NCBI GenBank assembly: GCA_023484305.1 | Contig: JAMDAL010000012.1 | Coordinates: 1 to 34,597 of the forward strand | DNA: 34,597 nucleotides | Source: Patescibacteria group bacterium | Lineage (GTDB): Bacteria > Patescibacteriota > Microgenomatia > JACPZF01 | Direction: 5' to 3' | In this document: piece by piece, positions 4,142 through 34,547 of the stretch | Layout: each line of letters starts with the position of its first letter | How positions within the stretch are numbered: position 1 is the stretch's first letter | Notes under the pieces: generated by a model | Told to the model about the DNA's origin: nothing | The model's input: only the letters and a program-made list of their open reading frames with translations | Databases searched by the model: none | Made by a program: the position numbers and the translations under genes

Positions 4142-4170
4142 TTGACAAATCAGGCATTGATAACTATTCT
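4142..4170 (+). promoter_or_regulatory. Sigma70-type promoter, TTGACA-N17-TATTCT, ending 9 nt before the ATG at 4180
   Basis: Perfect -35 TTGACA at 4142-4147, a 17-nt spacer, then TATTCT at 4165-4170. No Shine-Dalgarno lies in the 9 nt before the start codon. Confidence 0.45.
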
Positions 4171-4179
4171 TTTGGCAAG

Positions 4180-5670
4180 ATGAATTTTCGGATTAAGGAT
4201 ATTTTTAAGGACAAATACCGCTTTTTAATGTGGTTGGCAATTGTACTTTTTTCCGCATATTTTATTTTTCTTTCCTTCCAAAGACACGATAATTATTTTT
4301 CCCGGCGGCTGGATTTGGGCAATATGGACCAGACGGTTTGGAACGTTTTGCACGGCAACGGATTTACCATGACCAATCCGGCCGGGGTTAACCAGGAATC
4401 GCGGCTGGCAGTCCACGCCGATTTTCTTTTAATATTGCTGGCTCCGTTTTATCTGGTTTGGTCAGACCCTAAAATGCTTTTGGTTATCCAAACGATCGTG
4501 ATGGAAACGGGTGCGCTGGCTGTTTATTGGATTGCTTTGGAAAAACTTAAAAACAAAAAAAAGGCGCTGTTTTTTGGAGTGTCATACCTTTTATATCCGC
4601 CCCTGCAAAGGCTTTTGCTGCATGATTTTCATGCCGTGGCCTTGTCAACCACCTTTTTACTTTTTGCTTACTGGTTTATGATAAAAAAGAACTATGTTCG
4701 GTTTTTAATTTTTGCTTTGCTGGCAGCCCTGGGCAAAGAGCAGGTTTGGCTTATAACAGGATTAATGGGATTGTATATTGCTTTTATCCAGCAGGGAACA
4801 AATTTGTCTGTTAACAGAAAAAGGCTGTTGGGCATAACCATAGCCTCGTCGAGTTTTTTGATTTTTTATTTTTTAATGTGGAAATTTATACCGCAGGTAA
4901 CTGCAAATGGCCAGCATTTCGCCCTTACCTATCTTTCCGATTTCGGCGACAGCCAGAACCAGATTATTAAACATATACTTACGGAACCCTTTTTAACAGT
5001 TAAAACTCTTTTTGCCCCCGACCGGCTGTTTTATTTTTTCCAGATTATGATTCCTCTGGGATTATTGAGCATTATTAACCCGTTTAAACTTGTTTTTGCG
5101 GCTCCCGACCTTTTGATTAATGCCTTAAGCAGCAATCAGCTGATGCGCCAGATTGATTATCAATATAACAGCACTATTGCCCCTTTTATTTTTATCAGCA
5201 GTATAGAAGGCTACTTGGTCGCGGAAAAATTTTTGAAAAAAATCAGCAACAAAAATATAAACCGTCTTAGTTTAAGGCTGTTTCCAATTTTAATCGCGGG
5301 TTTTGTTTTAACCGCATCGTTTTTATGGGGGGAGCTTCCGGGAGAAAAAGAATCGCGCTTTTTTTACTTCACTGCGGCGCCTTGGGAAAAACCTGTTTTG
5401 GATAAAATCATCAAATCCATAGGGACGCGGTATTCCGTTTCTGTATCCAATAATATCGGCGCCCATTTATCCCAGCGCGAATTTTTGTATAATTATCCTG
5501 TCAACGGTTTAAAAGCCGATTACGTTTTAGTTCAACTGGGCGACCCTTATGCCTGGCCCAGCGACAAGGAACAAAAAAAAGTCTTAAAAGAGCTTTTGGC
5601 CGACAAAAATTATTTTTTAATGGACCATGTTAATAATTTTTATGCTTTCAGAAGGATAAACGATTTATGA
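4180..5670 (+). CDS. DUF2079-family polytopic membrane protein (probable GT-C-like glycosyltransferase)
   Basis: 496 aa with many TM helices. The N-terminal RLDLGNMDQTVWNVLHG motif is characteristic of DUF2079. Its stop overlaps the next start (ATGA at 5667-5670). Confidence 0.7.
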   Translation: MNFRIKDIFKDKYRFLMWLAIVLFSAYFIFLSFQRHDNYFSRRLDLGNMDQTVWNVLHGNGFTMTNPAGVNQESRLAVHADFLLILLAPFYLVWSDPKMLLVIQTIVMETGALAVYWIALEKLKNKKKALFFGVSYLLYPPLQRLLLHDFHAVALSTTFLLFAYWFMIKKNYVRFLIFALLAALGKEQVWLITGLMGLYIAFIQQGTNLSVNRKRLLGITIASSSFLIFYFLMWKFIPQVTANGQHFALTYLSDFGDSQNQIIKHILTEPFLTVKTLFAPDRLFYFFQIMIPLGLLSIINPFKLVFAAPDLLINALSSNQLMRQIDYQYNSTIAPFIFISSIEGYLVAEKFLKKISNKNINRLSLRLFPILIAGFVLTASFLWGELPGEKESRFFYFTAAPWEKPVLDKIIKSIGTRYSVSVSNNIGAHLSQREFLYNYPVNGLKADYVLVQLGDPYAWPSDKEQKKVLKELLADKNYFLMDHVNNFYAFRRINDL

Positions 5671-6596
5671 AAAAAACAGAACTAAGCCTGGTGATACCTC
5701 TTTACAACGAAAAGGAAAGCCTTAGGGAATTAATAGACAAAACTGACTCGGCTCTTAAAAACTACGTTTTTGAATATATTTTTATTGATGACGGTTCAAC
5801 CGATGACAGTTTTAATGAGCTAATCAGAATTAAAAAAGACCGCAAGAGTGCATTTAAAATTGTCCGGTTCCGTAAAAACCAGGGCAAATCCGCAGCGCTA
5901 TCAGTCGGTTTTAAAATGGCCGGAGGCGAAAAAATTGTGACTCTGGATGCGGATTTGCAGGACAGTCCTGAAGAAATTCCCGGTCTTTTGAAAAAACTTG
6001 ATAAGGGATTTGACTTGGTAATCGGCTGGCGAAAAGACAGGCAGGACCCGAAAAATAAAATCAGGCTGTCGCATTTTTTTAACGCTGTGGTTTGCCGGGC
6101 GGCCAATTTGTCTTTGCATGATATGAACAGCGGGCTTAAGGTTATGAAGGCGGAGGTGGCCAAAGAAATTGAATTATATGGGGAATTGCACAGGTTTATT
6201 CCCGTTTTGGCTGTGGGCCGGGGTTTTTCCGTCGGCGAGGAGCCGGTCCGCCATAGCGAAAGAAAATATGGTTCTTCCAAATTCGGCCGGGAAAGGATTT
6301 TTCATGCCGTGTTTGATTTAATTACCACCTCGTTTTTGATTTCCTTTAAAAACCGGCCTTTGCAGATTTTTGGGCCCTTGGGGTTTTTATCGGGCAGCAT
6401 AGGGTTGGTTATTCTTTTTTATCTGTCCTATTTGCATTTTATAGGAGAGTCTATCGGCAGAAGGCCGCTTTTGTTTTTGGGCATCCTGTTTGTGCTTTTC
6501 GGCGTTCAGATATTTTTAACCGGGCTTCTGGGAGAACTTATTATAAGCACTCATATTCAAAAAGAGAAAAAACCTATTAGCGAGATTGTAGAATGA
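5667..6596 (+). CDS. GT2 polyprenyl-phosphate glycosyltransferase (GtrB/ArnC/DPM1-like) with two C-terminal TM helices
   Basis: 309 aa. It has LVIPLYNEKESL, IFIDDGSTDDS and LDADLQD (DxD) motifs, plus a C-terminal membrane anchor. It is translationally coupled to the DUF2079 gene. Confidence 0.85.
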   Translation: MKKTELSLVIPLYNEKESLRELIDKTDSALKNYVFEYIFIDDGSTDDSFNELIRIKKDRKSAFKIVRFRKNQGKSAALSVGFKMAGGEKIVTLDADLQDSPEEIPGLLKKLDKGFDLVIGWRKDRQDPKNKIRLSHFFNAVVCRAANLSLHDMNSGLKVMKAEVAKEIELYGELHRFIPVLAVGRGFSVGEEPVRHSERKYGSSKFGRERIFHAVFDLITTSFLISFKNRPLQIFGPLGFLSGSIGLVILFYLSYLHFIGESIGRRPLLFLGILFVLFGVQIFLTGLLGELIISTHIQKEKKPISEIVE

Positions 6597-6606
6597 TATT
6601 TTCTTT

Positions 6607-6798
6607 GTCATTCCCGGCCAGGCAGGGGATTCAGACAATAATTATCGTTCGAGCGTTAGCGAGAACTATTAAATGTTAAGAACTTCTCACTTCCTGCCTG
6701 TCCGGCAGGCAGGCGTTCGAAGAATATTATATTGATTCCCGATTGCCTGTCCGCCCTGCCTACCGGCAGGCAGGCGGCAGGAGGGGATCGAAAATGAC
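6607..6798. repeat. Mosaic of nested palindromic repeats (families A, B and C)
   Basis: A: gtcattcccggccaggcaggggattc (6607-6632). B, reverse orientation: tcgttcgagcgttagcgagaac...cttctcacttc[...]gttcgaagaatatt (about 6636-6728). C, inserted in B: cctgcctgtccggcaggcagg (6693-6713). Degenerate A: gattcccg...ggggatcgaaaatgac (6734-6798), which contains a second C copy, cctgcctaccggcaggcagg (6755-6774). Confidence 0.8.
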
Positions 6799-7072
6799 AG
6801 GTAATACTTTTATGAAAATTGACTTTCTTGTTCTCTTTGGTTTTTTTGCACAGTTTGTTTTTTTTCTGCGTTTTGTAGTGCAGTGGCTGGCTTCGGAAAA
6901 AGAAAAGAAGAGCGTTATTCCTATGAGTTTTTGGTACCTAAGCATTATTGGTTCAATCTTGATTTTGATTTATGCCGTAAAAAGGCACGATCCGGTTTTT
7001 AGCGTCGCCCAGTTTTTAGCCCTTTTTATCTATCTTCGCAATATCATCTTAAGAAAGAAACAAAAAGATTAA
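6794..7072 (+). CDS. Lipid-A-disaccharide synthase N-terminal (LAB_N) domain small membrane protein
   Basis: The ORF track starts at 6743, but the first 17 codons read through repeat sequence (PVRPAYRQAGGRRG). The ATG at 6794 follows an AGGAGG Shine-Dalgarno at 6779-6784. The sequence FAQFVFFLRFVVQWLASEKEKKSVIPMSFWYLSIIGSILILIYAVKRHDPVF matches the LAB_N pattern. Confidence 0.7.
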   Translation: MTGNTFMKIDFLVLFGFFAQFVFFLRFVVQWLASEKEKKSVIPMSFWYLSIIGSILILIYAVKRHDPVFSVAQFLALFIYLRNIILRKKQKD

Positions 7073-7899
7073 ACTTTAAAAGCCACGACGGGAAATTTTG
7101 TCCAAAATCCGCCCGGACGGTAAGCAGTTTCCGCGAAATTTCTGGGACCGTCAACGTCGTAAGCGATTTTTTCTAATTTGGAGTATAGCAGGGTTAAAAT
7201 TCCAAAGCCATTAGCGCTCCCCCGCGCGTATGGCGTACGATGGTCGGTGTTGACAAGCGAAACCCGACCGGTTTTATCATCAAGCGCAAAAGCCAGCAAA
7301 TCATGGGTATCCAAAGTTTGGGTGGAGTCGGAAATCTGGTCGTCATTGACGGCCACAGTGGAAATCATCACCAAAAAACCCTGTTTAATAAAATCGGATA
7401 ATTCCCCGAAACTTTTGATTTGAGTTGAAGATGTTTTACAGCCCAGTTTAAGAAAAAGCCGGGTTTTTAAATAATCGGTGATTCCGTTCTCCCCGATTCT
7501 GCCCATTTTGCCGTTATACAGGGCGTGTCCGTCCCGGTAAATTCCCAAACCCCTAGCCTTGTTAACCACGTCGTTAAAAGTTATATCAGCCCCTTGCATT
7601 TTCATTCCGATCCAGGCCAGGCGCAAAGAGCAGGCCCAGCCGGAAAGTTCAGAATTCTCATAATCATGGGGCGTTTCCACGCGTGACAGATTGCCGGAAA
7701 CATTGCCGGAAACAGCTACAAAGCCCTTTTGATAGTTTTTATCTCTTAAACGAAAAGGTTCTATTTCTACCGGTTGCAAATTAATATCCGGCAACGCAAA
7801 TTTTACGACCGAAAGGCCGGGTTGTTTTTGTTCTATAAACATAATCTCTGTAATATACCACTTATTTTTTGGAAATGGTTGTACGAAGACGGAAGGCAT
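7069..7899 (-). CDS. Hypothetical protein with a C39-like (papain-fold) cysteine peptidase signature
   Basis: 276 aa. ENSELSGWACSLRLAWIGMKMQGADITFNDVV fits the catalytic-Cys helix of peptidase_C39_2-type domains. THDLLAFALDDKTGRVSLVNTD fits their His strand. I recognised this by motif only. A start at the M20 codon (7842) is also possible. Confidence 0.4.
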   Translation of the reverse strand: MPSVFVQPFPKNKWYITEIMFIEQKQPGLSVVKFALPDINLQPVEIEPFRLRDKNYQKGFVAVSGNVSGNLSRVETPHDYENSELSGWACSLRLAWIGMKMQGADITFNDVVNKARGLGIYRDGHALYNGKMGRIGENGITDYLKTRLFLKLGCKTSSTQIKSFGELSDFIKQGFLVMISTVAVNDDQISDSTQTLDTHDLLAFALDDKTGRVSLVNTDHRTPYARGSANGFGILTLLYSKLEKIAYDVDGPRNFAETAYRPGGFWTKFPVVAFKV

Positions 7900-8004
7900 A
7901 ATAAAGAAGTAAAACCCGAAAGGGGACCAACCGGTTTAGATGGTGAAGGTAATTATTGGAAAAAGGTGTGATGGTAAGAAGAGCAGGAAGTTAACCAGCA
8001 ATAT

Positions 8005-8853
8005 TCATTTTACAAAAACCCGGCCTTTTTGTTTTAAAACAAAATCAACCGCTTCCGTTAAGGAGTTAACAACCACACTTTTATTTGTGTTGGAAAACCA
8101 ATGTCGTTCCCAAGGCGGTGTGTAAGCGCCTGTAACTAAAGCCGTGCCAATATTTAACCAATTTGGCAAATATAATTCCAATTCGCCAATATCTCCAAAA
8201 ACCGCGGCGATGGGACTAAGGCGTCTAAGCGCTTCTAAATATTTTGGCCTCCCCAAATATACCGGTCTGCCTAAACCAGGAACATTTAGGCCTAGTGGTA
8301 TTTCAGGAGATAGGCTTTGTGGAGAAACAACAAATTTTTGGGCGTCTCCGACAACCTGAATATGGTTTTTCTCCCCAATTAGGGCATCAATTTTGTAGCG
8401 TACGCTGCCGGTACTGGAATTGGTGACAACCACAAATTTTCTGCTGGAACTAAGTCTTTTTAAAGCATCAATGGCATCCGGTTTAAAAAGAGCAGGAGTA
8501 CGTTTGTAAGCATAACCATAAAGTTGATTTAAGAATGCATCGGTTTCGTTTTGGTCTGGAAGATTTTTATAATTTTCGGCCCGCAGGCTGTCAATGACAA
8601 GTTTGGCACAGGCTTGGCTAAAAAGAATAATATCTGCCGCAGGCGCCACAATAATGCCGTTAATTTCCCAGCCGTACTCGCCGGGGTTTTTTAAGATTTC
8701 CTGTCCCGCGGCGGCCATTAAATCGTGAGTATAATTTTGATTTAAAGAGCAAAGTTTGGCAAACAGGGCAGTAAAGTTTTCTATATAAACAGGACTATTA
8801 AAGGTGAATGTTCCGTCGAAATCGCCCAAAATATTTCCTGCCTCTTTATTCAT
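8005..8853 (-). CDS. HAD-superfamily hydrolase-like protein
   Basis: Motif I GDFDGTFTF lies near the N-terminus, motif II is VVVTNSST, and motif IV-like is FGDIGELE. The track start at 8874 is a TTG. The ATG at 8853-8851 sits 6 nt downstream of a TATAAT box. Confidence 0.55.
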   Translation of the reverse strand: MNKEAGNILGDFDGTFTFNSPVYIENFTALFAKLCSLNQNYTHDLMAAAGQEILKNPGEYGWEINGIIVAPAADIILFSQACAKLVIDSLRAENYKNLPDQNETDAFLNQLYGYAYKRTPALFKPDAIDALKRLSSSRKFVVVTNSSTGSVRYKIDALIGEKNHIQVVGDAQKFVVSPQSLSPEIPLGLNVPGLGRPVYLGRPKYLEALRRLSPIAAVFGDIGELELYLPNWLNIGTALVTGAYTPPWERHWFSNTNKSVVVNSLTEAVDFVLKQKGRVFVK

Positions 8854-8859
8854 ATAAAA

Positions 8860-8865
8860 ATTATA
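8860..8865 (-). promoter_or_regulatory. -10 box TATAAT, 6 nt upstream of the ATG at 8853 (leaderless geometry)
   Basis: The minus-strand sense reads ggtgttaTATAATttttatATG. Confidence 0.4.
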
Positions 8866-8886
8866 TAACACCAAGCAAATTTTCTG

Positions 8887-8895
8887 TGCTACAAT
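8887..8895 (+). promoter_or_regulatory. Extended -10 promoter TGcTACAAT, 6 nt upstream of the ATG at 8902 (leaderless geometry)
   Basis: The sequence is tgTGcTACAATggatttATG, with no Shine-Dalgarno. Confidence 0.5.
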
Positions 8896-8901
8896 GGATT
8901 T

Positions 8902-10053
8902 ATGGTTAAAAAATTTCTCGGTCTTTGGGACGGCAAAAAATACTATTTTATCGCAGGATTCGTTTTGGTTTTATTCGGGCTTTTGATGTTTTTTTTGTTG
9001 CGCCCGCCCCCGGCGCAAGAAGCCTACACGGTTAAAAGAGAAAATTTTAGCAACACGGTTTTGGCGGATGCAACCTATACGACTGCTTCCCAAACTTCAG
9101 TTTGGTCGCCAACCAACGGCACCTTGACAAAACTTTTTGTAGCAAACGGCCGGCAGGTTAAAAAAGGTGATCCTCTTTTTCATGTTGAAAGCAGCGCCAC
9201 TGACGAAGAAAAAAGAACTGCCTACGCTAACTATATGGCGGATAAGTCAACTTTAGATGCGGCTACGGCAGAACTTTACACCTTGCAATCAGATATGTAT
9301 GCGGCCTGGAAAACCTATACGGATCTGGCAAAAAATTCCACCTATCAAAATTCAGACGGGACGCCCAGAAACGATAACCGCGTTTTGACGGAGTTTACGA
9401 CAGCCCAGGATGACTGGCTGGCGGCAGAGGCTAATTTTAAAAATCAGCAGACTGTCATTGCCAAAGACCAAGCTGCAGTTGCCAAAACCTGGTTGCAAAA
9501 TGAGCAAACCCAAAGCGTTACAGTTAACAGTCCGGCTGCCGGAACCGTGACCAACCTTCTGTCTCAAGTTAATGACGAAGTGGCGGTTAAACCGGCTGAC
9601 CCGGTACTCTTAGTAGCCAATTTTCACGACCCATATCTTTTAGTATCTCTTAACGAAGTTAATATTCCCAAGGTTAAGGTTGGTCAAAAAGCGACAGTAG
9701 TGTTTGATGCTTTGCCTGACAAAACTTATCATGGAGAGGTGGAAACTCTGGATAATGTAGGAACCAAAGTTTTAGGGACAGTCACTTTTGACGCCAGAAT
9801 TAAGATTGTAGACGGTGATAACGAAATTAAGCCCAATATGACAGCTTCAATAACAATTACCACTTCCAACCGTCAAAATGTTTTAACCGTTCCCAACAGC
9901 GCTTTAACAGAGAAAAACGGACAGTATTATGTGCAAAAAGCTGGTTCTTCAGGCAATAACCTTACTCCGGTTAAAGTTGGTCTAAAAGGCTTGGTAAAAA
10001 GCGAAATAAGTTCTGGCTTAACAGAAGGCGAACAGATTCTGGTTCCCCGATAG
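8902..10053 (+). CDS. HlyD/MacA-family periplasmic adaptor (membrane fusion protein)
   Basis: 383 aa with an N-terminal TM anchor. It has a lipoyl-like hairpin (VKKGDPLFHVES ... SPAAGTVTNL), a coiled-coil middle and a beta-barrel C-terminus. FtsX permease and ABC ATPase genes follow it. Confidence 0.8.
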   Translation: MVKKFLGLWDGKKYYFIAGFVLVLFGLLMFFLLRPPPAQEAYTVKRENFSNTVLADATYTTASQTSVWSPTNGTLTKLFVANGRQVKKGDPLFHVESSATDEEKRTAYANYMADKSTLDAATAELYTLQSDMYAAWKTYTDLAKNSTYQNSDGTPRNDNRVLTEFTTAQDDWLAAEANFKNQQTVIAKDQAAVAKTWLQNEQTQSVTVNSPAAGTVTNLLSQVNDEVAVKPADPVLLVANFHDPYLLVSLNEVNIPKVKVGQKATVVFDALPDKTYHGEVETLDNVGTKVLGTVTFDARIKIVDGDNEIKPNMTASITITTSNRQNVLTVPNSALTEKNGQYYVQKAGSSGNNLTPVKVGLKGLVKSEISSGLTEGEQILVPR

Positions 10054-12133: not shown

Positions 12134-12637
12134 TTAGCTATTATAATCCCATAGTAATAAATGTATCAAAGATTTAAACGTTCTGACAGCGTTTGCAAGG
12201 CCTCGCCTTGCAAACGTCGGATTTTCTTTTTGATTGCCGGCTTTTATATTTAAACCTTTAAGTTTTTCAACGCAAAACAGAAGACTTAATTGCATACCGT
12301 TTTTCTTCATAAATTCGTTAGTTTTTTTCAACATCAGAAGGGACAAACCTTTTTTCTGATGATTTTCTTTGATTCCCAAGTTACCAATGCCGCCTACTAA
12401 AACGGGAAACGGTTTTGGAAGATGGCGTTTAACAATGCTTAAAGAGCCGACCAATTCTTTGCCATGGTAAAGTAAAAGCTGCCACCTGGGTTTGGAACTG
12501 TAATAAAGTTGTTTGTTTTTATTGTAGCTTTGGGAGAAATGATAACTAAAAGAAAAAAGTGGCACCAATAGTTGTGTTAATAGTTGTTTTTCCTCTTTAG
12601 TTAGCCTGTCTTCTTCTTTAAAAACAAAATCAAACAT
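12134..12637 (-). CDS. GNAT-family N-acetyltransferase-like protein
   Basis: 167 aa. VLVGGIGNLGIKENHQKKGLSLLMLKKTNEFMKKNG fits the acetyl-CoA binding beta4-alpha3 (Q/R-x-x-G-x-G/A-like) region. The last 35 or so codons run through the hairpin at 12190-12216, so the C-terminus may be atypical. Confidence 0.55.
   Translation of the reverse strand: MFDFVFKEEDRLTKEEKQLLTQLLVPLFSFSYHFSQSYNKNKQLYYSSKPRWQLLLYHGKELVGSLSIVKRHLPKPFPVLVGGIGNLGIKENHQKKGLSLLMLKKTNEFMKKNGMQLSLLFCVEKLKGLNIKAGNQKENPTFARRGLANAVRTFKSLIHLLLWDYNS
12190..12232 (+). terminator. Candidate intrinsic terminator of the efflux operon, embedded in the 3' end of the convergent GNAT ORF
   Basis: A perfect 11-bp stem, gtttgcaaggc / gccttgcaaac (12191-12201 / 12205-12215), has a 3-nt loop. 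It is followed by gtcggATTTTCTTTTTg on the plus strand. Confidence 0.5.
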
Positions 12638-12645
12638 TACACTAT

Positions 12646-12651
12646 ATTATA
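12646..12651 (-). promoter_or_regulatory. -10 box TATAAT, 8 nt upstream of the GNAT ATG at 12637
   Basis: The minus-strand sense reads tagtcTATAATatagtgtaATG. Confidence 0.35.
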
Positions 12652-12702
12652 GACTAAAATTGTCGCTTTCTCTTACCAGGTTTAAAGTTGCTTTGGAAAT
12701 TC

Positions 12703-12711
12703 TGATACAAT
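12703..12711 (+). promoter_or_regulatory. Extended -10 promoter TGaTACAAT, 6 nt upstream of the ATG at 12718 (leaderless geometry)
   Basis: The sequence is tcTGaTACAATagctttATG. Confidence 0.5.
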
Positions 12712-12717
12712 AGCTTT

Positions 12718-13572
12718 ATGTTCTGGCAAATTGCACTGGCAATTAGCATTATTTCTGCTTCCTTGGCGACTTTGGCACAAAAAGTTCTACTTCGGGAAAG
12801 AGAAGTTGACCCGGTGGCGTCAGCCATTTTCTTGCAGGTGTTTTTTGCACTTCTTATTGGTTTATTTGGTGTTGTTACAGGACAATTTACCTTTAATGGG
12901 ATATCTCAAATCATTTCCAATCTTATTGTTTTAATGCTTTTAATTGGCGGATTTTATGCTGTGGCCTTTAGAGCCATAAAACTCATTGAGATTTCCAAAT
13001 ACATCGTTATTTTATCATTGCGGCCGGTTTTTACGGTTATTTCGTCAACTTTATTTTTATCCGAAGGGCTAAACAATAAACAATATTTGGGCATGGCGCT
13101 AATTTTAGCGGCCGTAGCCTTGGTGACTTTGGAAAGAAACTGGAAATTTAATTTTGGCAAGGGAGAAATAATGGCCTTAGCGGCGGCAGCTTTGGTGGGT
13201 TTTGCTAATACTAATGACAGAATAGCACTTTTGCACTTTTCCTTTATCACATATCTTTTTCTCTCAGCGCTTTTGCCAGGTACGTTTTTAGTTATAAGCA
13301 GCAGAAACACCCTAAAAAAAATGAAAATATTTTTGGAGAAAAATCTGTTTTTCAAAGTTTCAGTGATGTCTTTTTTTCAATCCTTAGCAGTAATAACTTT
13401 TCTTCTGGCTCTTAAAGCAGGGAATAATTCCTCACAGGTTTCTTCCATAAATGAAGTTAGTATTATTCTCACCGTGATTTTATCAATAATTTTTCTCAAG
13501 GAGCGAGATTTCCTAGACAGAAAACTTAGTGGTGCTTTGTTAGCCTTTTTAGGACTGATATTGATGGGATAA
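12718..13572 (+). CDS. EamA/DMT-family transporter
   Basis: 284 aa with about ten TM helices in two EamA-like halves. Confidence 0.75.
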   Translation: MFWQIALAISIISASLATLAQKVLLREREVDPVASAIFLQVFFALLIGLFGVVTGQFTFNGISQIISNLIVLMLLIGGFYAVAFRAIKLIEISKYIVILSLRPVFTVISSTLFLSEGLNNKQYLGMALILAAVALVTLERNWKFNFGKGEIMALAAAALVGFANTNDRIALLHFSFITYLFLSALLPGTFLVISSRNTLKKMKIFLEKNLFFKVSVMSFFQSLAVITFLLALKAGNNSSQVSSINEVSIILTVILSIIFLKERDFLDRKLSGALLAFLGLILMG

Positions 13573-13601: not shown

Positions 13602-13630
13602 TTGCCAATGTATTAGTTTGAGAATATAAT
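13602..13630 (+). promoter_or_regulatory. Sigma70-type promoter TTGCCA-N17-TATAAT, ending 8 nt before the ATG at 13639
   Basis: -35 TTGCCA at 13602-13607 and -10 TATAAT at 13625-13630. No Shine-Dalgarno. Confidence 0.5.
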
Positions 13631-13638
13631 TTTATTTT

Positions 13639-15225
13639 ATGTCTATTAAGAAGTTTTTACCTAATCTTGACAATGAAAACAACCGCTGGATAGCGTTGTT
13701 TTTTATTGCTTTGGGACTGGCCATTGTTATTATTGATAACACAGTTTTAAACGTCGCCATTCCGTATATAATTGCTGATTTGCACACAAATTTTACAGCC
13801 ATTCAGTGGGTGGTTTCCGGATACACGCTCTTAATGGCCACACTTTTAATCACAGCCGGAAGGCTGGGAGATATGTTTGGAAGAAAGAAAATGTTTCTGA
13901 CAGGAACCGTGCTTTTTGCCATTGGTTCTTTTATTGCCTCTATCTCCACCAGCGCTGCCATGCTATTTTTTGGCGAAGCTTTTATTGAAGCCTTGGGAGC
14001 GGCTTTGATGTTAACTTCAGCATTGGCCACCATGGCGTATGAGTTTAGGGGGAAAGAGCGGGCGATTGCTTTTGGCGTTTGGGGCTCAATTGCCGGAGCT
14101 TCTGCTTCAGTTGGGCCGCTTTTGGGGGGATATCTGACGACCTATTTTTCCTGGCGTTATTCATTCAGAATTAACGTTTTTGTGGCCTTAATCACCATTT
14201 TAGGCTCAGTTTTTATTAAAGAATCAAAAAGCCATGAAGGCAAAAGATTTGACTGGTTGGGAACAATACTTTCAGGAGTTGGCCTTTTTAGTTTAATTTT
14301 TGCTCTTATTGAAGGAAGAGATTTAGGATGGTTTTGGCCCTCACCCATTCCTCTTCTTTTTTTGCTGGCAGCAGTTTGTTTAACGCTGTTTATTTTTTGG
14401 GAAAGGCATTTGGAAAAACAGGAAAGAGCACCGCTTTTAAAATTAAGCCTGTTTGCCAAACCGGGGTTTAGTTTTGGTTTGTTAACCTTAACCATTGTTT
14501 CTTTAGGACAGTTTGGAACATTTTTTATTCTTCCTTTGTTTTTGGAAAACGTTGTGGGTTTAAATGCCTTTCAAACGGGCGTGGCCTTTTTGTCCTCGTC
14601 AGTCAGCGTTTTTATTTTTGGACCGGTTTCCGGATTTATTGCCTCTAAAATTAATCCCAAATATCTGGTTAATGTGGGCATGTTTATTTTGGCCTTGGGA
14701 GTTTTGGTTTTGTCCCGTTCGGTCTCCGTTTCAGCCACAGCCTGGAGTTTGGCACCTTCTTTTATTTTGTTTGGAATGGGAATTGGCATTGCCTCGGCTC
14801 AGCTTAACAACATTATTCTTTCTTCGGTTCCTATTGATGTGGCCGGTGAGGCTTCAGGCTCCAGTGCCACGACCCGTCAAGTTGGCTCCACCATCAGTTC
14901 GGCTCTAATTGGCACCATTTTGGCCAGTTCTTTGCTTTTTAATATAACTACCAACATTAATAAGGACAGTCGTATTCCTGCCATGGTTAAACAGAAGGTT
15001 TTAGTTTCCTTGCAACATGCTTCACCTGAAAGTTTGCAGTTTAGTCCGGTCAAAGGCAATAATCAGACAGAATATGACGCTCTTATTAAAGCCAACGTGG
15101 ATCAGGCTTTGGTTGATGCTTCCAAACGGGCCTTATCAGTGGCTTTTATTTTTGTCTTTTTAGGAGCCTTGGTTTCCCTTCTTATTCCCAAACTTTCGTT
15201 TGATCAAGGAAGAAGACCGGAATAA
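13639..15225 (+). CDS. MFS transporter, DHA2 (EmrB/QacA, 14-TMS) type
   Basis: 528 aa. Motif A-like GRLGDMFGRKKMF and motif C-like GPLLGGYL are present, and the length and TM count are typical of DHA2 drug:H+ antiporters. Confidence 0.85.
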   Translation: MSIKKFLPNLDNENNRWIALFFIALGLAIVIIDNTVLNVAIPYIIADLHTNFTAIQWVVSGYTLLMATLLITAGRLGDMFGRKKMFLTGTVLFAIGSFIASISTSAAMLFFGEAFIEALGAALMLTSALATMAYEFRGKERAIAFGVWGSIAGASASVGPLLGGYLTTYFSWRYSFRINVFVALITILGSVFIKESKSHEGKRFDWLGTILSGVGLFSLIFALIEGRDLGWFWPSPIPLLFLLAAVCLTLFIFWERHLEKQERAPLLKLSLFAKPGFSFGLLTLTIVSLGQFGTFFILPLFLENVVGLNAFQTGVAFLSSSVSVFIFGPVSGFIASKINPKYLVNVGMFILALGVLVLSRSVSVSATAWSLAPSFILFGMGIGIASAQLNNIILSSVPIDVAGEASGSSATTRQVGSTISSALIGTILASSLLFNITTNINKDSRIPAMVKQKVLVSLQHASPESLQFSPVKGNNQTEYDALIKANVDQALVDASKRALSVAFIFVFLGALVSLLIPKLSFDQGRRPE

Positions 15226-15250: not shown

Positions 15251-15279
15251 TTGATATGATGCAGTTAATTTGTTAAAAT
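15251..15279 (+). promoter_or_regulatory. Promoter TTGATA-N17-(TGt)TAAAAT, ending 6 nt before the ATG at 15286 (leaderless geometry)
   Basis: -35 TTGATA at 15251-15256, TGt at 15271-15273 and TAAAAT at 15274-15279. Confidence 0.55.
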
Positions 15280-15285
15280 AATAAC

Positions 15286-16557
15286 ATGACAAACCAAATT
15301 GAATTAGCAATTGGTACTACAGTTAGGTTTCCTGAAGATTCTTCCGTTGGTATGGCAAATAGAATTATTTCGGACAAAGAAACTCACGGGGAAAGAGATA
15401 TTTTACGTCCAATGATTAGTGAATTTGATCTGATTATCACTAGAATTAATTCTTTAGAAGATCAAGAAATAGATGAATGTATAGCTCCGCACTTAAAAAA
15501 AATTGTCGGGTTGTTATCTGCGAATGGGTTACGTTTACCGACTTTGTCACAAATAAGGGAGAACAACGATCCACAAGTTAGAGAAGGAGTGAATAAAGTA
15601 ATGGAGGAAGTAAGGAAAGGGTTGGCTGGTGAAAAAAAGGAATGGGGATGGCTAAATGAACTTAAAACACCTCGTTTAATTGTTGGTTCGTTATTCGTAG
15701 ATTCTTATAAGCATCTGTTAGCAGTTCGTCCCGAATTCCAGGAACACGAAGATATAAACTCGTTGGCTAATAACGCTCTGGAAGAAGCTTCACTTTTATA
15801 TTATCCGGAATTTGGAATAAATAGAGGTGCCTCTAGGTGGTATACCGTTGAAGAGGGATTTACTCAAGATTTTACTGATTTTACCCAGGCAGTTAAACTT
15901 ATCGAAATTTGTAGAACTCTTGAACCGAATATTTTAAGTAGAAAAAATATGGAGAAAGTATGGAAGTTTATAAAAGAACATCCTCGTGATGTTCTAGAAT
16001 TAATCAGAACTCTTAACCAAGCAGTAGGCGACCTAAATCAAATAGTGACGGAACACGATGTTCCCGAAATGTTAAAAAATATAAAAGATTCTCAAGCAGT
16101 TATCAGCGATTATTCATTGCCATTATTTCTAGGTGAAACAGAACCTGGATTTGATATAAGAAATTTACAAAGTTTAAAGAGAGGGCTTAAAAGAACTAAT
16201 TTTCATATGGCTATTGGGGAGAGTGTTAATCAAACATCAGAGTTACCGGAGACGATTCAAAATAATTTAGATTATGCCAGATTTCATGTTGATGTTTCTG
16301 ATCCCAAAGCAATTTTTGCCGGGTTAATAACTCACATGGTGGAATATTGGACTAAATCAAATCCTTCATATAGATTGTTGGGCAGAGATACGATGATAAA
16401 CGCCTTATGTGAAATAATTGGTTATAAGCACTTTGATTCAGAATTATTCAAGCTTTTGTATGATAAGGACGGATTGAATTGGTATTCAGTAGACTGGGGG
16501 TTTAAACAAGAATTTATAGACTATATAGATAAAAAAGTTAAAACAGATCAAAAATAA
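15286..16557 (+). CDS. Hypothetical cytoplasmic protein (423 aa), no family recognised
   Basis: A long uninterrupted ORF with its own promoter-like signal. It has no TM segments and is acidic. I recognise no catalytic or binding motif. It looks AT-richer than its neighbours by eye. Confidence 0.7.
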   Translation: MTNQIELAIGTTVRFPEDSSVGMANRIISDKETHGERDILRPMISEFDLIITRINSLEDQEIDECIAPHLKKIVGLLSANGLRLPTLSQIRENNDPQVREGVNKVMEEVRKGLAGEKKEWGWLNELKTPRLIVGSLFVDSYKHLLAVRPEFQEHEDINSLANNALEEASLLYYPEFGINRGASRWYTVEEGFTQDFTDFTQAVKLIEICRTLEPNILSRKNMEKVWKFIKEHPRDVLELIRTLNQAVGDLNQIVTEHDVPEMLKNIKDSQAVISDYSLPLFLGETEPGFDIRNLQSLKRGLKRTNFHMAIGESVNQTSELPETIQNNLDYARFHVDVSDPKAIFAGLITHMVEYWTKSNPSYRLLGRDTMINALCEIIGYKHFDSELFKLLYDKDGLNWYSVDWGFKQEFIDYIDKKVKTDQK

Positions 16558-16573
16558 CTTCCTCTTTATTTTG

Positions 16574-16582
16574 TGTTAAAAT
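16574..16582 (+). promoter_or_regulatory. Extended -10 promoter TGtTAAAAT, 6 nt upstream of the ychF ATG (leaderless geometry)
   Basis: The sequence is ttttgTGtTAAAATcgtctcATG. The same ttttgtgttaaaat string precedes rpmE. Confidence 0.55.
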
Positions 16583-16588
16583 CGTCTC

Positions 16589-17650
16589 ATGAATCTTTCA
16601 GTAGGCATTGTTGGTCTTCCTAATGTGGGGAAGAGCACGCTTTTTAATGCCATTTTAAAAAGGCAGATTGCGGCTGCTTCCAACTATCCTTTTACCACCA
16701 TTGAACCAAACGTGGGCGTGGTTGAAGTGCCTGATGATAGACTTGCTGTTTTGGCAAAAATTGTAAACACGCAAAAAAATATTCCGGCGGTCGTCCGATT
16801 TGTGGATATTGCCGGTCTGGTAAAAGGTGCAGCCCAAGGACAAGGTCTGGGCAACAAATTTTTGTCGCATATCAGGGAAGTCAATGTCATTTGTCATGTC
16901 GTGCGCTATTTTCAGGACGAAAATGTGGTGCACGTGAACGGGGCGGTTAATCCGCAGTCTGACATAGACACGGTTAACAGTGAACTCATATTGGCTGATC
17001 TTGAAACACTAGAAAAAGTCAAAAGTCAAAAGTCAAAGGTCAAAACCACAAGTGAAAAGTCAAAAATAGACGGCGTAGAAAAATTATACGAAGCATTAAA
17101 TAAGGGGATATTGGCTAAAGACGTGGTATTGACCGATGAAGAAAAAGAGGCCGTTCAGGAACTGCAGCTTATTACAGCCAAGCCGGTTATTTATGTGAAA
17201 AATGTGGACGAAAGCCAGATAACAGACAACAGTAAACAGACAACAGAAAGAAACGAAATCGCCATTTGCGCCAAGATTGAGGCAGAACTTGCAGAATTAT
17301 CAGAAGAAGAGCAAAAAGAATATCTGAAGCAACTGGGTTTGGAAAAGTCCGGACTGGAGAGATTAATACAAGTGGCCTACCAAACCTTAGGATTAGTCTC
17401 ATTTTTAACTGCCGGAGAAAAAGAAGTTCGGGCCTGGACCATTGTTAAGGGTGCAAGGGCGCCGGAGGCAGCCGGAGTTATCCACACTGATTTTATTAAA
17501 GGTTTTATTAAGGCAGAAGTTTGTTCCTATGGCGATTTTGTGAAATTTAACGGCTGGCAGGGGGCAAGAGACAATGGCAAAGTGAGGTTTGAGGGGAAAG
17601 ATTATGTGATGCAGGAAGGAGACGTGACGGAATTTAAGGTCAATGTTTAA
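16589..17650 (+). CDS. ychF: Redox-regulated ribosome-binding ATPase YchF
   Basis: 353 aa with G1 GLPNVGKST, NYPFTTIEPN, DIAGLVKGA, a coiled-coil insert, and the C-terminal TGS-like FFTAG-type block (SFLTAGEKEVRAWT...GVIHTDFIKGFI...KDYVMQEGDV). Confidence 0.95.
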   Translation: MNLSVGIVGLPNVGKSTLFNAILKRQIAAASNYPFTTIEPNVGVVEVPDDRLAVLAKIVNTQKNIPAVVRFVDIAGLVKGAAQGQGLGNKFLSHIREVNVICHVVRYFQDENVVHVNGAVNPQSDIDTVNSELILADLETLEKVKSQKSKVKTTSEKSKIDGVEKLYEALNKGILAKDVVLTDEEKEAVQELQLITAKPVIYVKNVDESQITDNSKQTTERNEIAICAKIEAELAELSEEEQKEYLKQLGLEKSGLERLIQVAYQTLGLVSFLTAGEKEVRAWTIVKGARAPEAAGVIHTDFIKGFIKAEVCSYGDFVKFNGWQGARDNGKVRFEGKDYVMQEGDVTEFKVNV

Positions 17651-18029
17651 ATCCGGGATTGGTTTGGAAAACTTCCTCGAACCTGCCGTTTAGATATAAA
17701 TAATAAACTTCCACATCCAAATGAGGAAAAATAGCCTCGATTTTTCTTTTTGCTTCTATTAAATCTGTGACGTGCCTGGAATAATTTCCCTCTTTGCCAT
17801 AGGCCCCGCAGTCTTCGTGGTTAATAAGTACCACCCTTTTAATTTCGTGCAAGTTGCTGGAGATTTCCACCTGCCTAAGAATTGAGTAAAAATCAAAAAC
17901 CCCGCCGGCCAAAGCCACCCTGTCAAACTTCTGGTTTTTAAAATATTTATTAAGCCATTTATCAATATATTTTTGAATGCGAAAATCAATACAGGTAATA
18001 ATAATGGCGTCGCAAACGTGTTTGGTCAT
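17640..18029 (-). CDS. Short beta-carbonic-anhydrase-like protein (CxDxR ... HxxC zinc-site motifs)
   Basis: The track start at 18065 is a TTG. The ATG at 18029 gives 129 aa. The motifs IIITCIDFR, DRVALAGG and VLINHEDCGAYG line up with the beta-CA C-x-D-x-R, R-N-A-G-G and H-x-x-C-G blocks. The protein is much shorter than canonical beta-CAs. Confidence 0.45.
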   Translation of the reverse strand: MTKHVCDAIIITCIDFRIQKYIDKWLNKYFKNQKFDRVALAGGVFDFYSILRQVEISSNLHEIKRVVLINHEDCGAYGKEGNYSRHVTDLIEAKRKIEAIFPHLDVEVYYLYLNGRFEEVFQTNPGFKH

Positions 18030-18109
18030 GGCGTTAATAGTATAACGATTTTTAATGTTTGACAAGCCTCTTGCGAAACGGCCGGTGTTTTGTTATATTT
18101 AACCAGATT

Positions 18110-18421
18110 ATGAGAACATATGAATTGGTTTTGATTTTGCCGCCCGGTTACAGCGAGGAAGAGCAAAACAAACTTCTGACAAAAGTCAGCAAACTTATTG
18201 AAACTTCTTCTGACAAGGAAACAAAAGGGGCAGAAAAGGGCAGGGTTGTTAAGAAAACCTCCTGGGGAAAGAAAACTTTTAGTTACCCGGTTGCCAAAAA
18301 CGCCGAGGGAATTTATTGGCATTTGGATCTGGAGCTTAATCCGGAAACGGCAGTAAATCTGGCAAAACAGTTAAAATTAAATGAACAGGTGTTAAGGTTT
18401 TTAATGCTTAAAAAGCAATAA
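18110..18421 (+). CDS. rpsF: 30S ribosomal protein S6
   Basis: MRTYELVLILPP... is the canonical S6 N-terminus. The track ORF start at 18059 is an upstream extension. TGtTATATT (18091-18099) lies 10 nt before the ATG. Confidence 0.9.
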   Translation: MRTYELVLILPPGYSEEEQNKLLTKVSKLIETSSDKETKGAEKGRVVKKTSWGKKTFSYPVAKNAEGIYWHLDLELNPETAVNLAKQLKLNEQVLRFLMLKKQ

Positions 18422-18533: not shown

Positions 18534-18548
18534 GATGGAGGTAAAAAT

Positions 18549-24162: not shown

Positions 24163-24474
24163 CTAATTTTCTTGCATGAGCATTTCGCGCAGTGTCAGAG
24201 GTTTTTTCTCTTCGGTTTGAAAAAGATTTTGTTTTTTAGCCTTTTTCTTAGCCATTGTATCTGCCATTTTAACAGCTCTTTGCTGTTTGGCAGTGAATTT
24301 CTGGATTTGGCCCTGGGTATCCACAAATTTCATTTGGCCGGTGAAAAAAGGATGGCATTTGGAACAAATTTCCACCTTAATAACCTGCCGGGTTGAACCG
24401 GTGGTAAAAGTATTGCCGCAGGCGCAAATAACCTGCGCATCGTCATAATATTGCGGATGAACATTCGTTTTCAT
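24163..24474 (-). CDS. rpmE: 50S ribosomal protein L31 (Zn-ribbon type) with a lysine-rich C-terminal extension
   Basis: [10 protein letters not shown]...CACGNTF...[10 protein letters not shown] is the L31 core with the CxC...CxxC motif. The track start at 24510 lies inside a repeat. The ATG at 24474 is 7 nt downstream of TGtTAAAAT. Confidence 0.9.
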
Positions 24475-24481
24475 AAAGGCT

Positions 24482-24490
24482 ATTTTAACA
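24482..24490 (-). promoter_or_regulatory. Extended -10 promoter TGtTAAAAT, 7 nt upstream of the rpmE ATG
   Basis: The minus-strand sense reads aaaattttgTGtTAAAATagcctttATG. Confidence 0.5.
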
Positions 24491-24505
24491 CAAAATTTTG
24501 TTCCT

Positions 24506-24575
24506 GTCATTCCCGATCTAATCGGGAATCCATAAAATAATTATTTATATAGATTCCCGCTTGCGCGGGAATGAC
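24506..24575. repeat. Pair of family A hairpins in inverted orientation
   Basis: The two copies are gtcattcccgatctaatcgggaatc (24506-24530) and gattcccgcttgcgcgggaatgac (24552-24575). The second supplies the last codons (SFPRKRESI) and the stop of the EamA gene. Confidence 0.8.
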
Positions 24576-26826: not shown

Positions 26827-26889
26827 ATTTTTCCTTCCTATCAAAACTATATCATCTACCTCTTAAATTGGGTAGTGATTGTTTTTATG

Positions 26890-29376: not shown

Positions 29377-29382
29377 AGAAAA

Positions 29383-30204
29383 TTATATTGATATAGATTC
29401 CCGTTTACACGGGAATGACAAAGTTATATTTTTCTTTAAAATTTTTATGGGACCGTCTATTTTGGCAGAGATGAAATATTGACTGTTTTTCTTAACCGAA
29501 ACATAAATTCGCTTACAAGACGGTTGAAGAACAGGAAGGCTATCCACAATTATTTGTTTTTGAGAAAGGTAAAGACCTACAGCTGTTGTTCCGCTGGCAC
29601 AGGCAGTTTCATAGAAAAATGTTTTTATATCCCGTACCCAAACAACCGGCTCAATCGCATAGAGTCCGTTTTTCTTGTATAAAAACATCACTCCGGAGGC
29701 CGGCACAGAAGTTATAAGTCCAAGCTGTTTTAAGATTTTTAATGCTTCTTTTTTAGCCTTTTGCTGATTTATAAATTTTTCTTTTTTCTCAACTATCACA
29801 AGGGTTATACCGTAAAGCGGTATTATCATGTAATTATCTTGGTAAGAAATAACTTTCGGATTTTTATAAATTGGCATTTGGGCCCAAGCAGTATTTTTTC
29901 CTGATACTCCGGCCTTTAACAGGCGATTAACGCCAGAAACTTTTATTTCAGTTTCTCCAGGCAGTCCTTTTAGCGCCAGAAAAACTGTTGACCTTGTGGC
30001 GTTTCCACAAAATTCACCACCTGCCATTTGTAATTCAGGTTTTGAAAGGTCAATAAAACCCACCTGTTCAACGTTTTTATATTTTTTCATAATTGTGTCA
30101 TTAATAATTTTTTTCTCTTCCATTGATCTATTAATTCCCAAAACCAGAGCAGTGTCATTACCCCCCGGTTTGACAATAGTGATGTTGGAAATAATTTTTT
30201 TCAT
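29383..30204 (-). CDS. DapF-fold (diaminopimelate-epimerase-like) PLP-independent two-cysteine racemase/epimerase homologue
   Basis: 273 aa from the ATG at 30204, preceded by the strong Shine-Dalgarno AAGGGGGA (the track start at 30294 would overlap the tRNA). VKPGGNDTALVL corresponds to the GxGNDF block. GGEFCGNATRS corresponds to the first catalytic Cys block (CGNGxR). YETACASGTTAV corresponds to the second Cys block. Substrate is unknown. Confidence 0.6.
   Translation of the reverse strand: MKKIISNITIVKPGGNDTALVLGINRSMEEKKIINDTIMKKYKNVEQVGFIDLSKPELQMAGGEFCGNATRSTVFLALKGLPGETEIKVSGVNRLLKAGVSGKNTAWAQMPIYKNPKVISYQDNYMIIPLYGITLVIVEKKEKFINQQKAKKEALKILKQLGLITSVPASGVMFLYKKNGLYAIEPVVWVRDIKTFFYETACASGTTAVGLYLSQKQIIVDSLPVLQPSCKRIYVSVKKNSQYFISAKIDGPIKILKKNITLSFPCKRESISI
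29396..29419. repeat. Family A hairpin gattcccgtttacacgggaatgac inside the 3' end of the DapF-like ORF
   Basis: It is near-identical in sequence and flank (atatagattcccg...cgggaatgacaa) to 24552-24575. It encodes the terminal ...SFPCKRESISI. Confidence 0.8.
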
Positions 30205-30225
30205 AAAAATCCCCCTTTTACTATC

Positions 30226-31822: not shown

Positions 31823-31858
31823 ATAAGTCGCAAACTAACTTAGCAATTTTTAGGCTAC

Positions 31859-31887
31859 TTGTCAAGAAAAGGAAGCTGTGGTATAAA
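31859..31887 (+). promoter_or_regulatory. Promoter TTGTCA-N17-(TGg)TATAAA, ending 10 nt before the ATG at 31898
   Basis: The -35 lies in the palindrome CTTGTCAAG. On the other strand this reads TTGACA, followed by N17-TAAGTT for the divergent gene at 31822. Confidence 0.45.
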
Positions 31888-31897
31888 ACCGATACAT

Positions 31898-32542
31898 ATG
31901 GAAATAACATCTTTAGGCCATTCTTCTTTTAAAATCCGCGGCAAGAGCGCCAGCGTGGTTACGGATCCGTTTGATCCGGAGTTTACCGGCTTAAAATTCC
32001 CCCAGGTAAACGCTGATATCGTTACCATCAGCCACCGTCACAACGACCATAATTATTTAAAAGGAATATCCGGCGAACCTTTTGTTGTTGACGGTCCCGG
32101 AGAATACGATGTCAAAGGTATAAGCATTTTAGGTTTATCGACATTCCACGATGATAAAAAGGGAAGCGAAAGAGGCAGAAACACCGTTTATGAAATCAGA
32201 ATGGACGGGTTGAGCCTGGTGCATCTTGGCGATTTAGGCGAGGTTTTAAGTGACGAATCGGCAGAACAGCTGGACGGAGTCGATCTTCTTTTTGTGCCGG
32301 TTGGCGGTTATTACACATTGGCCACGGACAAACTGCAGGAAGTTATAAACAAGCTGGAGCCGAAAATAATTATACCCATGCACTATAGTCGTTCCGGATT
32401 AAAACCAGAATTATCTTCTAAACTTGCCACCGTGGAGGAATTTTTAAAAGCTATGGGAAAAACGGAAGTTATGCCGCAGGATAAACTGGTGATAAGCAGG
32501 GATAAGTTGGGAGAAGAAACACAGATAATCGTGCTTAAGTAA
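31898..32542 (+). CDS. MBL-fold metallo-hydrolase (UPF0173-like)
   Basis: MEITSLGHSSFKIRG...ISHRHNDHNY contains the HxHxDH motif. It is about 214 aa from the ATG at 31898 (the track start at 31859 is a TTG). Confidence 0.8.
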   Translation: MEITSLGHSSFKIRGKSASVVTDPFDPEFTGLKFPQVNADIVTISHRHNDHNYLKGISGEPFVVDGPGEYDVKGISILGLSTFHDDKKGSERGRNTVYEIRMDGLSLVHLGDLGEVLSDESAEQLDGVDLLFVPVGGYYTLATDKLQEVINKLEPKIIIPMHYSRSGLKPELSSKLATVEEFLKAMGKTEVMPQDKLVISRDKLGEETQIIVLK

Positions 32543-32550
32543 GCACGAGT

Positions 32551-34073: not shown

Positions 34074-34078
34074 AAATC

Positions 34079-34163
34079 GCCACGGTGCTGGAATGGTAGA
34101 CAGGCCAGTCTCAAAAACTGGTGGTGATAAAACACCGTGAGAGTTCGAGTCTCTCCCGTGGCA
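34079..34163 (+). tRNA. tRNA-Leu (anticodon CAA), long variable arm, CCA not encoded
   Basis: The acceptor stem is GCCACGG/CCGTGGC with A73. The anticodon stem CCAGT/ACTGG carries the loop CT-CAA-AA. The variable arm is GGTG-ATAAAA-CACC. The T arm is GAGAG-TTCGAGT-CTCTC. Confidence 0.9.
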
Positions 34164-34251
34164 CAAAAACCTGGGATGTAAAGCTAATACCACCCCCCGG
34201 GGTGTAAGATTGGGGGCGAAAAAAGTAAGGAGAAATTTTATCTTCCTTGCC

Positions 34252-34280
34252 TTGACAAAAATACAAGGAGAAGATACAAT
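34252..34280 (+). promoter_or_regulatory. Promoter TTGACA-N17-TACAAT, ending 9 nt before the antitoxin ATG at 34290
   Basis: Perfect -35 at 34252-34257 and TACAAT at 34275-34280. Short dyads (ccttg...caagg) overlap it, which is consistent with antitoxin autoregulation. Confidence 0.55.
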
Positions 34281-34289
34281 TTCCTTGTT

Positions 34290-34547
34290 ATGAATTATTT
34301 AGCCACCATTACCAGCAAAAATCAATTAACCTTGCCGATTGTTCTTTTTAAAAAGGCAGGTTTTAGAGTTGGTCAAAAGATTTCTGTTTCTGAAGAATCA
34401 GGCAGATTGGTTCTTACGCCGGCCGAAATGTTAATTGAAGAACTAGCAGGGTCTTTAAAAATGCCGAAGAAATGGAAGGGAAAAAGCCTGGACAGAATAA
34501 TCGAAGAATCTAAAAAAGAATATTTTAAAAAGAATAAATTTTCTTAA
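34290..34547 (+). CDS. AbrB/MazE/SpoVT-family antitoxin
   Basis: 85 aa. TITSKNQLTLPIVLFKKAGFRVGQKISVSEESGRLVLTP is a SpoVT-AbrB swapped-hairpin domain. A PIN gene starts 9 nt downstream. Confidence 0.75.
   Translation: MNYLATITSKNQLTLPIVLFKKAGFRVGQKISVSEESGRLVLTPAEMLIEELAGSLKMPKKWKGKSLDRIIEESKKEYFKKNKFS

Follow-up and report, generated by a model that had tools for sequence, protein, structure and literature searches.

The window, by which we mean the whole stretch of 34,597 nucleotides analysed here, is the first 34.6 kb of contig JAMDAL010000012.1 (contig C8 in our numbering) in a metagenome-assembled genome (MAG) of a Patescibacteria group bacterium (GCA_023484305.1; 723 kb in 54 contigs, 40% GC, 83% complete). 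It comprises about 36 genes, including ychF, rpsF-ssb-rpsR, rpmE, a prfA-like release factor gene, hisS, dnaB, and genes for transporters and proteases; the best matches of its YchF protein (start 16589) are from Candidatus Roizmanbacteria and Gottesmanbacteria, at 55–57% identity, as expected for a Microgenomates-like member of the Patescibacteria. The element of interest is a −10 hexamer, often in the extended TGn form, that recurs 6–10 nt before the ATG of first genes in transcription units and that a sequence-only reading of the window had taken as a sign of widespread leaderless or near-leaderless transcription. All 12 motif strings named in that reading were found exactly, with the start codons and spacings it had assigned to them. 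They are given below, together with one further good site beyond those 12, at 18029; spacings are written as N6 for six nucleotides between hexamer and start codon, and PWM denotes the score against a position weight matrix for the promoter.

4142..4182, plus strand: DUF2079 membrane protein gene, start 4180; TTGACA-N17-TATTCT-N9-ATG, near-leaderless spacing with a weak −10; PWM 6.5
8851..8888, minus strand: promoter and start (8853) of a HAD-hydrolase gene; TATAAT-N6-ATG; PWM 8.9
8867..8904, plus strand: promoter and start (8902) of an HlyD-family gene; TGcTACAAT-N6-ATG, of the extended −10 type and without a good −35; PWM 8.4
12635..12674, minus strand: GNAT acetyltransferase gene, start 12637; TATAAT-N8-ATG, a weaker site; PWM 6.4
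12683..12720, plus strand: promoter and start (12718) of an EamA transporter gene; TGaTACAAT-N6-ATG; PWM 8.8
13602..13641, plus strand: MFS transporter gene, start 13639; TTGCCA-N17-TATAAT-N8-ATG; PWM 9.9
15251..15288, plus strand: 423-aa gene without a family match, start 15286; TTGATA-N17-TGtTAAAAT-N6-ATG; PWM 11.8
16554..16591, plus strand: promoter and start (16589) of ychF; TGtTAAAAT-N6-ATG
18027..18065, minus strand: carbonic-anhydrase-like gene divergent from rpsF, start 18029; TTGTCA-N17-TACTAT-N7-ATG; PWM 10.0
18071..18112, plus strand: promoter and start (18110) of rpsF; TTGCGA-N17-TGtTATATT-N10-ATG
24472..24510, minus strand: promoter and start (24474) of rpmE (L31); aTGACA-N17-TGtTAAAAT-N7-ATG; PWM 12.7
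31859..31900, plus strand: MBL-fold hydrolase gene, start 31898; TTGTCA-N17(TGg)-TATAAA-N10-ATG
34252..34292, plus strand: MazE/AbrB-like small gene, start 34290; TTGACA-N17-TACAAT-N9-ATG, near-leaderless; PWM 12.2

Seven of the original 12 sites are strong and canonically spaced (8902, 12718, 15286, 16589, 24474, 8853 and 13639), and three are strong promoters at N9–10 (34290, 18110 and 31898); the 31898 hexamer, TATAAA, is non-consensus in that its final T is replaced, and TTGTCA lies 17 nt upstream of it. The remaining two, at 12637 and 4180, are weak (PWM about 6.5, with a chance expectation of about 3% each). The HlyD-family and HAD-hydrolase genes are divergent partners separated by an intergenic region of 48 nt.

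The checks proposed with the sequence-only reading included a whole-genome scan of −10-to-start distances and an inspection of the 16S rRNA 3′ end. The first gave a sharp peak before ATG starts at N6, extending to N8. In a start-agnostic scan of the whole genome, in which a motif was counted when followed by an ATG opening an open reading frame (ORF) of at least 80 codons and N12–30 served as background, the extended −10 element TGNTANNNT (TGnTAnnnT) was counted 24 times at N6 over a background mean of 2.5 (Poisson P = 7e-16), and TANNNT 80 times against 32 (P = 1e-12). Counted from longest-ORF starts, TGNTANNNT lay at exactly N6 in 26 genes compared with about 2 at other spacings, and TANAAT peaked at N6 (26) and N8 (20) over about 3. 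Because in-frame TAA and TAG stops upstream of longest-ORF starts could mimic TA-hexamers, the count was repeated with TAYAAT, a hexamer that cannot supply such a stop; over a background of 1.5, it was found 22 times at N6 (P = 2e-18), 7 times at N7 and 16 times at N8. The promoter PWM, built from the N6 set and applied at a threshold score of at least 8, returned 53 sites at N6, 18 at N7, 22 at N8, 12 at N9 and 11 at N10 over a background of about 4. The same whole-genome PWM scan showed no spacing peak for GTG and TTG candidate starts. The excess over background corresponds to about 80–120 genes, or 10–16% of all genes.

The hexamers at this position are accompanied by the other parts of a promoter. 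A TTG lies 17 nt upstream of 31 of the 165 N6–8 hexamers, 16 nt upstream of 10 and 18 nt upstream of 13, compared with about 3 at other spacings, and control hexamers located 20–25 nt from an ATG show no TTG peak. In addition, TGn precedes 25% of the N6–8 hexamers, against a comparison value of 9%. Judged from its composition, this architecture fits a sigma-70 −35/extended −10 promoter, with the −35 element at 17 ± 1 nt and an optional TGn. RNA polymerase normally starts 6–8 nt downstream of the −10 element; by this established promoter geometry, a 6-nt spacer would place +1 on the A of the ATG.

Operon context was read from a crude, home-made gene set (757 genes, 88% of the assembly). Divergently transcribed genes are first genes without ambiguity, and 63 of 158 belong to the leaderless-like class, compared with 22 of 216 genes that lie fewer than 20 nt downstream of another gene on the same strand (Fisher 2e-11). 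A Shine-Dalgarno (SD) 4-mer co-occurs in just 3 of 171 leaderless-like candidates. The earlier description of −10 elements at first genes without an SD sequence is thus borne out, with the class concentrated at first genes and almost devoid of SD cores. Elsewhere in the genome, SD 4-mers peak at spacings of 4–8 nt, with about 30–38 per position against about 6. The four window examples put forward as the contrasting, SD-led class are all present in the sequence:

6779..6784: SD of the gene starting at 6794; AGGAGG
18537..18541, plus strand: SD of ssb; GGAGG, 7 nt before ATG 18549
26833..26839, minus strand: SD of hisS; AGGAAGG, 6 nt before ATG 26826
30210..30217: SD of the gene starting at 30204; AAGGGGGA

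The wider statement that operon-internal genes carry SD sequences holds only in part. An SD core of 4 nt or more precedes about 26% of the internal genes that are tightly coupled, and the 6794 gene and hisS lie 197 and 130 nt from their upstream genes and are not clearly internal. Roughly half of all genes, among them 137 of the 216 tightly coupled internal ones, lack both an SD core and a promoter-adjacent ATG. The anti-SD sequence CACCTCCTT is present in all eight readable 16S 3′ ends from genomes of the same class, the 16S genes of some relatives being interrupted. With the anti-SD intact in these relatives, SD-led initiation would coexist with a leaderless mode. Separately, 42 same-strand gene pairs share a 4-nt overlap of the ATGA type, an arrangement suggestive of a third way to initiate, by translational coupling.

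Possibly, the TA-rich hexamers could instead be a translation signal within a transcribed leader, namely a non-SD, AU-rich site for the ribosome or S1 of the kind described for GeneMarkS-2 group B. Such a signal would suit an AT-rich genome (40% GC) in which half of the genes lack an SD, positions −2 to −8 are A-rich, T occupies −1 in about 70% of cases, and a short, four-domain S1 homologue is encoded. We nevertheless regard it as very unlikely. A −35 TTG at 17 ± 1 nt and TGn are features read by RNA polymerase rather than by the ribosome; the hexamers are four-fold rarer at operon-internal genes, which need translation signals too; and the peak has single-nucleotide sharpness at the usual distance from −10 to transcription start.

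Two features that figure in this comparison were also considered in their own right. T at −1 was rejected as evidence of a pyrimidine–purine (YR) start site at the ATG, since SD-led and unclassified genes have it just as often: it is found at 57–70% of starts in every class (leaderless-like, SD-led and neither), window examples being 8902, 16589 and 18549, with G at only 2–8%, and T precedes 36% of internal Met codons. It may be a general start-context signal, and U at −1 can pair with A37 of the initiator tRNA. The ribosomal protein S1 homologue (rpsA; contig C22, 4356-5366) matches profile positions 8–342 of 516 in an open frame of 455 aa. It is of short, four-domain length in this genome and in most relatives, in agreement with the published short bS1 (PMC9297842), and says nothing decisive about leaderless use.

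A second alternative accepts the promoters as real and places the true start codons further downstream, such that ordinary leaders have been misread as coding sequence. Room for this is left by the home-made start assignments, by alternative in-frame starts in several ORFs and by weak family matches, such as that of the DUF2079 protein, which begins at residue 35. Pfam profiles, however, begin at residue 1 for L31 (24474), 2 for Lactamase_B_3/MBL (31898), 2 for EamA (12718), 3 for S6 (18110) and 5 for YchF (16589). Orthologues of ychF and rpmE can be aligned from the first residue onward, the box keeping its position, and only ATGs at the beginning of long ORFs show the N6 peak. We therefore consider downstream starts highly improbable as a general explanation. 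Because the profiles begin near residue 1, the promoter-adjacent ATGs were also preferred over the longer starts in the ORF list, with 24474 chosen over 24510 and 31898 over TTG 31859. For the HAD-hydrolase gene, the start moves from TTG 8874 to ATG 8853. Of the four ambiguous starts that the promoter pattern had been said to settle, those at 24474, 18110 and 31898 are resolved in this manner; the one at 8853 is compatible only and not discriminated. A third explanation, that AT-rich intergenic DNA and in-frame TAA/TAG stops mimic −10 boxes, can be dismissed: TARNNT does rise mildly with period 3 where the spacing is in frame, and the count at spacing 0 is raised by T at −1, but the non-stop TAYAAT has the strongest N6 peak, and the peak is reproduced neither by positional controls nor by decoy in-frame ATGs 100–150 codons inside genes (3 at N6, compared with 83 at real N-terminal candidates) nor by the reversed pattern (3 against 14 in this genome).

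Turning to relatives (genomes of 0.7–1.1 Mb), the same spacing peak was observed in a same-family genome, G001 (705 kb examined; median protein identity to the present genome 51%), with TGNTANNNT at N6 in 27 cases over about 2 and TANAAT in 39 over about 4. The first 400 kb of a complete genome of the same class, G005 (786 kb), gave 15 at N6 and 12 at N7 over about 2. When conservation was scored as a promoter PWM of at least 8 at N5–10 of the orthologous ATG, the state was kept in G001 for 13 of 37 strong leaderless-type genes compared with 11 of 230 others (odds ratio 10.8, P = 8e-7). For individual genes, the ychF orthologues in G001 and G005 both carry TGaTAAAAT-N6-ATG, and those of rpmE carry TTGTCA-N17-TAGAAT/TATAAT-N8-ATG; the rpsF orthologue has TTGTCA-N17-TATAAT-N9-ATG in G005 and no such box in G001. 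More broadly, TGnTAnAAT lies 6–8 nt before the ychF start, which is GTG in one case, at five Microgenomates-like/Patescibacteria loci, and three further loci from the Candidate Phyla Radiation (CPR) have weaker boxes at N8–9. Among five non-CPR orthologues read, two have SD-like purine runs and three have neither signal. Judged from motif placement, the leaderless state turns over between families.

Together, the N6 peak, the promoter parts, the first-gene bias, the exclusion of SD sequences and the occurrence in relatives support the proposal of widespread leaderless or near-leaderless transcription. We propose, with a probability of roughly 85%, that a sizeable minority of this genome's transcription units is expressed as leaderless or near-leaderless mRNAs; the best reading of the counts puts the leaderless share at roughly a third of transcription units, plus a near-leaderless tail at N9–10. 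Under this proposal, a sigma-70-type promoter (−35 TTGaca, 17-nt spacer, often TGn, −10 TAnAAT) would be placed with its −10 element ending 6 nt, or less often 7–8 nt, before the ATG, making the A of the ATG the first transcribed base. The resulting mRNA would have no 5′ untranslated region or SD, and the ribosome would be recruited directly through the 5′-terminal AUG and initiator tRNA. Spacings of 9–10 nt would yield leaders of only about 1–4 nt, and the remaining genes would use ordinary SD pairing or no recognisable signal.

Motif positions, promoter composition, operon context, the exclusive use of ATG, conservation in relatives and breadth across the phylum were observed directly; transcription start at the ATG and the mode of ribosome loading are deduced from the −10-to-ATG distance, and this is one of several points that weigh against leaderless expression on the scale proposed. 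Gene and start calls were home-made and not those of a validated gene finder. The leaderless-like class also takes in about 10% of the tightly coupled internal genes, a share that gives the floor of false positives or internal promoters, and the N9–10 sites, about three-fold enriched, form a weak tail of the peak. Conservation of the state at G005 orthologues is weak (11 of 40 compared with 28 of 212, P = 0.03, other thresholds not being significant); with weak enrichment at most (P 0.03–0.15), it was not used as strong support. Two components were found in relatives rather than in the 83%-complete MAG itself. No 16S gene was found in the MAG, and the anti-SD is taken from the same-class relatives. 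Likewise, the primary sigma-70 was not found in it: Pfam Sigma70_r2 matched only one 184-aa sigma factor resembling the extracytoplasmic function (ECF) type and RpoD_Cterm (TIGR02393) had no match there, while full-length Sigma70_r2 proteins of 416 and 372 aa occur in G001 and G005.

Several further arrangements were observed in the window and genome. At 29376 (minus strand), TATAAT-N5-ATG (29377-29400) lies 6 nt behind the upstream gene and may be an internal promoter or a chance occurrence. At 7842 (minus strand), TGgTATATT-N9-ATG (7843-7880) precedes an alternative start of a 276-aa gene without a family match. The Na/Ca exchanger gene (start 4102, minus strand), divergent from the gene at 4180, appears to be leadered (4103-4179): its upstream region has TTGTCA-N18-TATACT about 16 nt away and an AAAGGA SD, a contrast within the window to the leaderless class. 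Across the genome, 13 divergent gene pairs have a leaderless-type promoter on each side, examples being 8854-8901 in the window and C33:20441-20465, C50:11123-11147 and C12:5650-5692 on other contigs. The shortest of these double-promoter intergenic regions measure 24, 24, 42, 48, 56 and 60 nt, and in both 24-nt cases the two −10 boxes overlap, forming compact bidirectional promoters. Such promoter-plus-start cassettes, some of 24–60 bp and bidirectional, could serve future genetic tools in cultivable CPR such as Saccharibacteria.

In a survey of 201 Patescibacteria genomes sampled evenly from the phylum, with N12 as control spacing, TGNTANAAT-N6-ATG was found 2932 times compared with 638 at N12. 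The N6 count exceeded the N12 count in 182 of the 201 genomes and was at least three-fold higher in 124; 11 genomes of the same class contributed 275 at N6 and 35 at N12. Ratios of N6 to N12 were 0.5–1.7 in comparison genomes from Firmicutes, Ignavibacteria and Nitrospirales (Helcococcus 23:17, a Lachnospiraceae MAG 17:10, Ignavibacteriaceae 6:12, Nitrospirales 1:2). Three Patescibacteria families (f65, f36 and f81) show little or no N6 enrichment, with 0–4 matches in each f65 genome; thus, the trait is not uniform across the phylum. Outside the CPR, an Elusimicrobia genome (G228, with locus L045) has 16 matches at N6 and 2 at N12, with GC-rich spacers, which hints at leaderless genes there too.

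This survey fits a wider reading, towards which we lean slightly, in which leaderless initiation would be a major, phylum-wide mode of expression in Patescibacteria/CPR and not a quirk of one genome. It may be tied to the reduced CPR translation apparatus, with its short bS1 and, in many Parcubacteria, loss of the anti-SD; leaderless genes are not discussed by Tsurumaki et al. 2022 (PMC9297842), who reported that bS1 is short and the anti-SD frequently lost in Parcubacteria. No report of leaderless transcription in CPR, Patescibacteria, Saccharibacteria, Microgenomates or Parcubacteria was found in the searchable literature. The feature itself is confirmed as real and mechanistically ordinary, a known architecture in a lineage for which no published report was found. 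If the wider reading is true, a large uncultured lineage with small ribosomes would join those bacteria that depend strongly on leaderless translation, which bears on the ideas that leaderless initiation is ancestral or that it accompanies reduced translation machinery. There is also a consequence for annotation: start codons in such genomes will be misplaced by gene finders built on the assumption of SD-led initiation, as illustrated in the window by the longer spurious ORF starts of rpmE, rpsF, the MBL gene and the HAD gene, and a promoter-adjacent ATG rule would improve the annotation of thousands of CPR MAGs.

The architecture has counterparts in other phyla. GeneMarkS-2 group C (Lomsadze et al. 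2018, PMC6028130) comprises Actinobacteria and Deinococcus-Thermus, genomes in which a Pribnow box lies 6–8 nt from first-gene starts and SD sequences are found at other genes. The present genome resembles this group in its −10 peak 6–8 nt before the start, judged here from motif position and operon context; in the proportion of unambiguous first genes involved (about 30–40%, compared with 25–50% reported in PMC6028130); and in SD sequences at 4–8 nt spacing that would serve another subset of genes, with the anti-SD retained in relatives. It differs in belonging to Patescibacteria (Microgenomates-like) with a low-GC, 0.7-Mb genome, in its frequent extended −10 TGn and exclusive use of ATG, and in the roughly half of its genes that have neither signal. 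Were the phylum-wide reading true, the CPR would be a third large bacterial group C lineage beside Actinobacteria and Deinococcus-Thermus.

Zheng et al. 2011 (PMC3160421) described leaderless genes of the TA-led type, in which a TA-like signal precedes the start by about 10 bp, and Zhong et al. 2025 (PMC12340547) demonstrated an ORF-adjacent −10 motif experimentally in Deinococcus-Thermus. As in those cases, the TA-like signal here would act as a promoter −10 element driving leaderless mRNA, in roughly 10–20% of genes compared with more than 20% there. The evidence there comes from differential RNA sequencing (dRNA-seq) or reporters and here from sequence alone, in a different phylum; the statistics here additionally pick up a −35 TTG and TGn. 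Finally, the leaderless transcriptome of Mycobacterium tuberculosis includes a large fraction of transcription units with a transcription start site at the start codon (Cortes et al. 2013, PMC3898074). Both systems lack an SD at these genes and have the −10 element at canonical distance, with the start site at the start codon predicted from sequence in the present genome. Mycobacteria also use GTG at leaderless starts and do so without a strong −35 element, whereas here ATG alone peaks and the −35 TTG is enriched.

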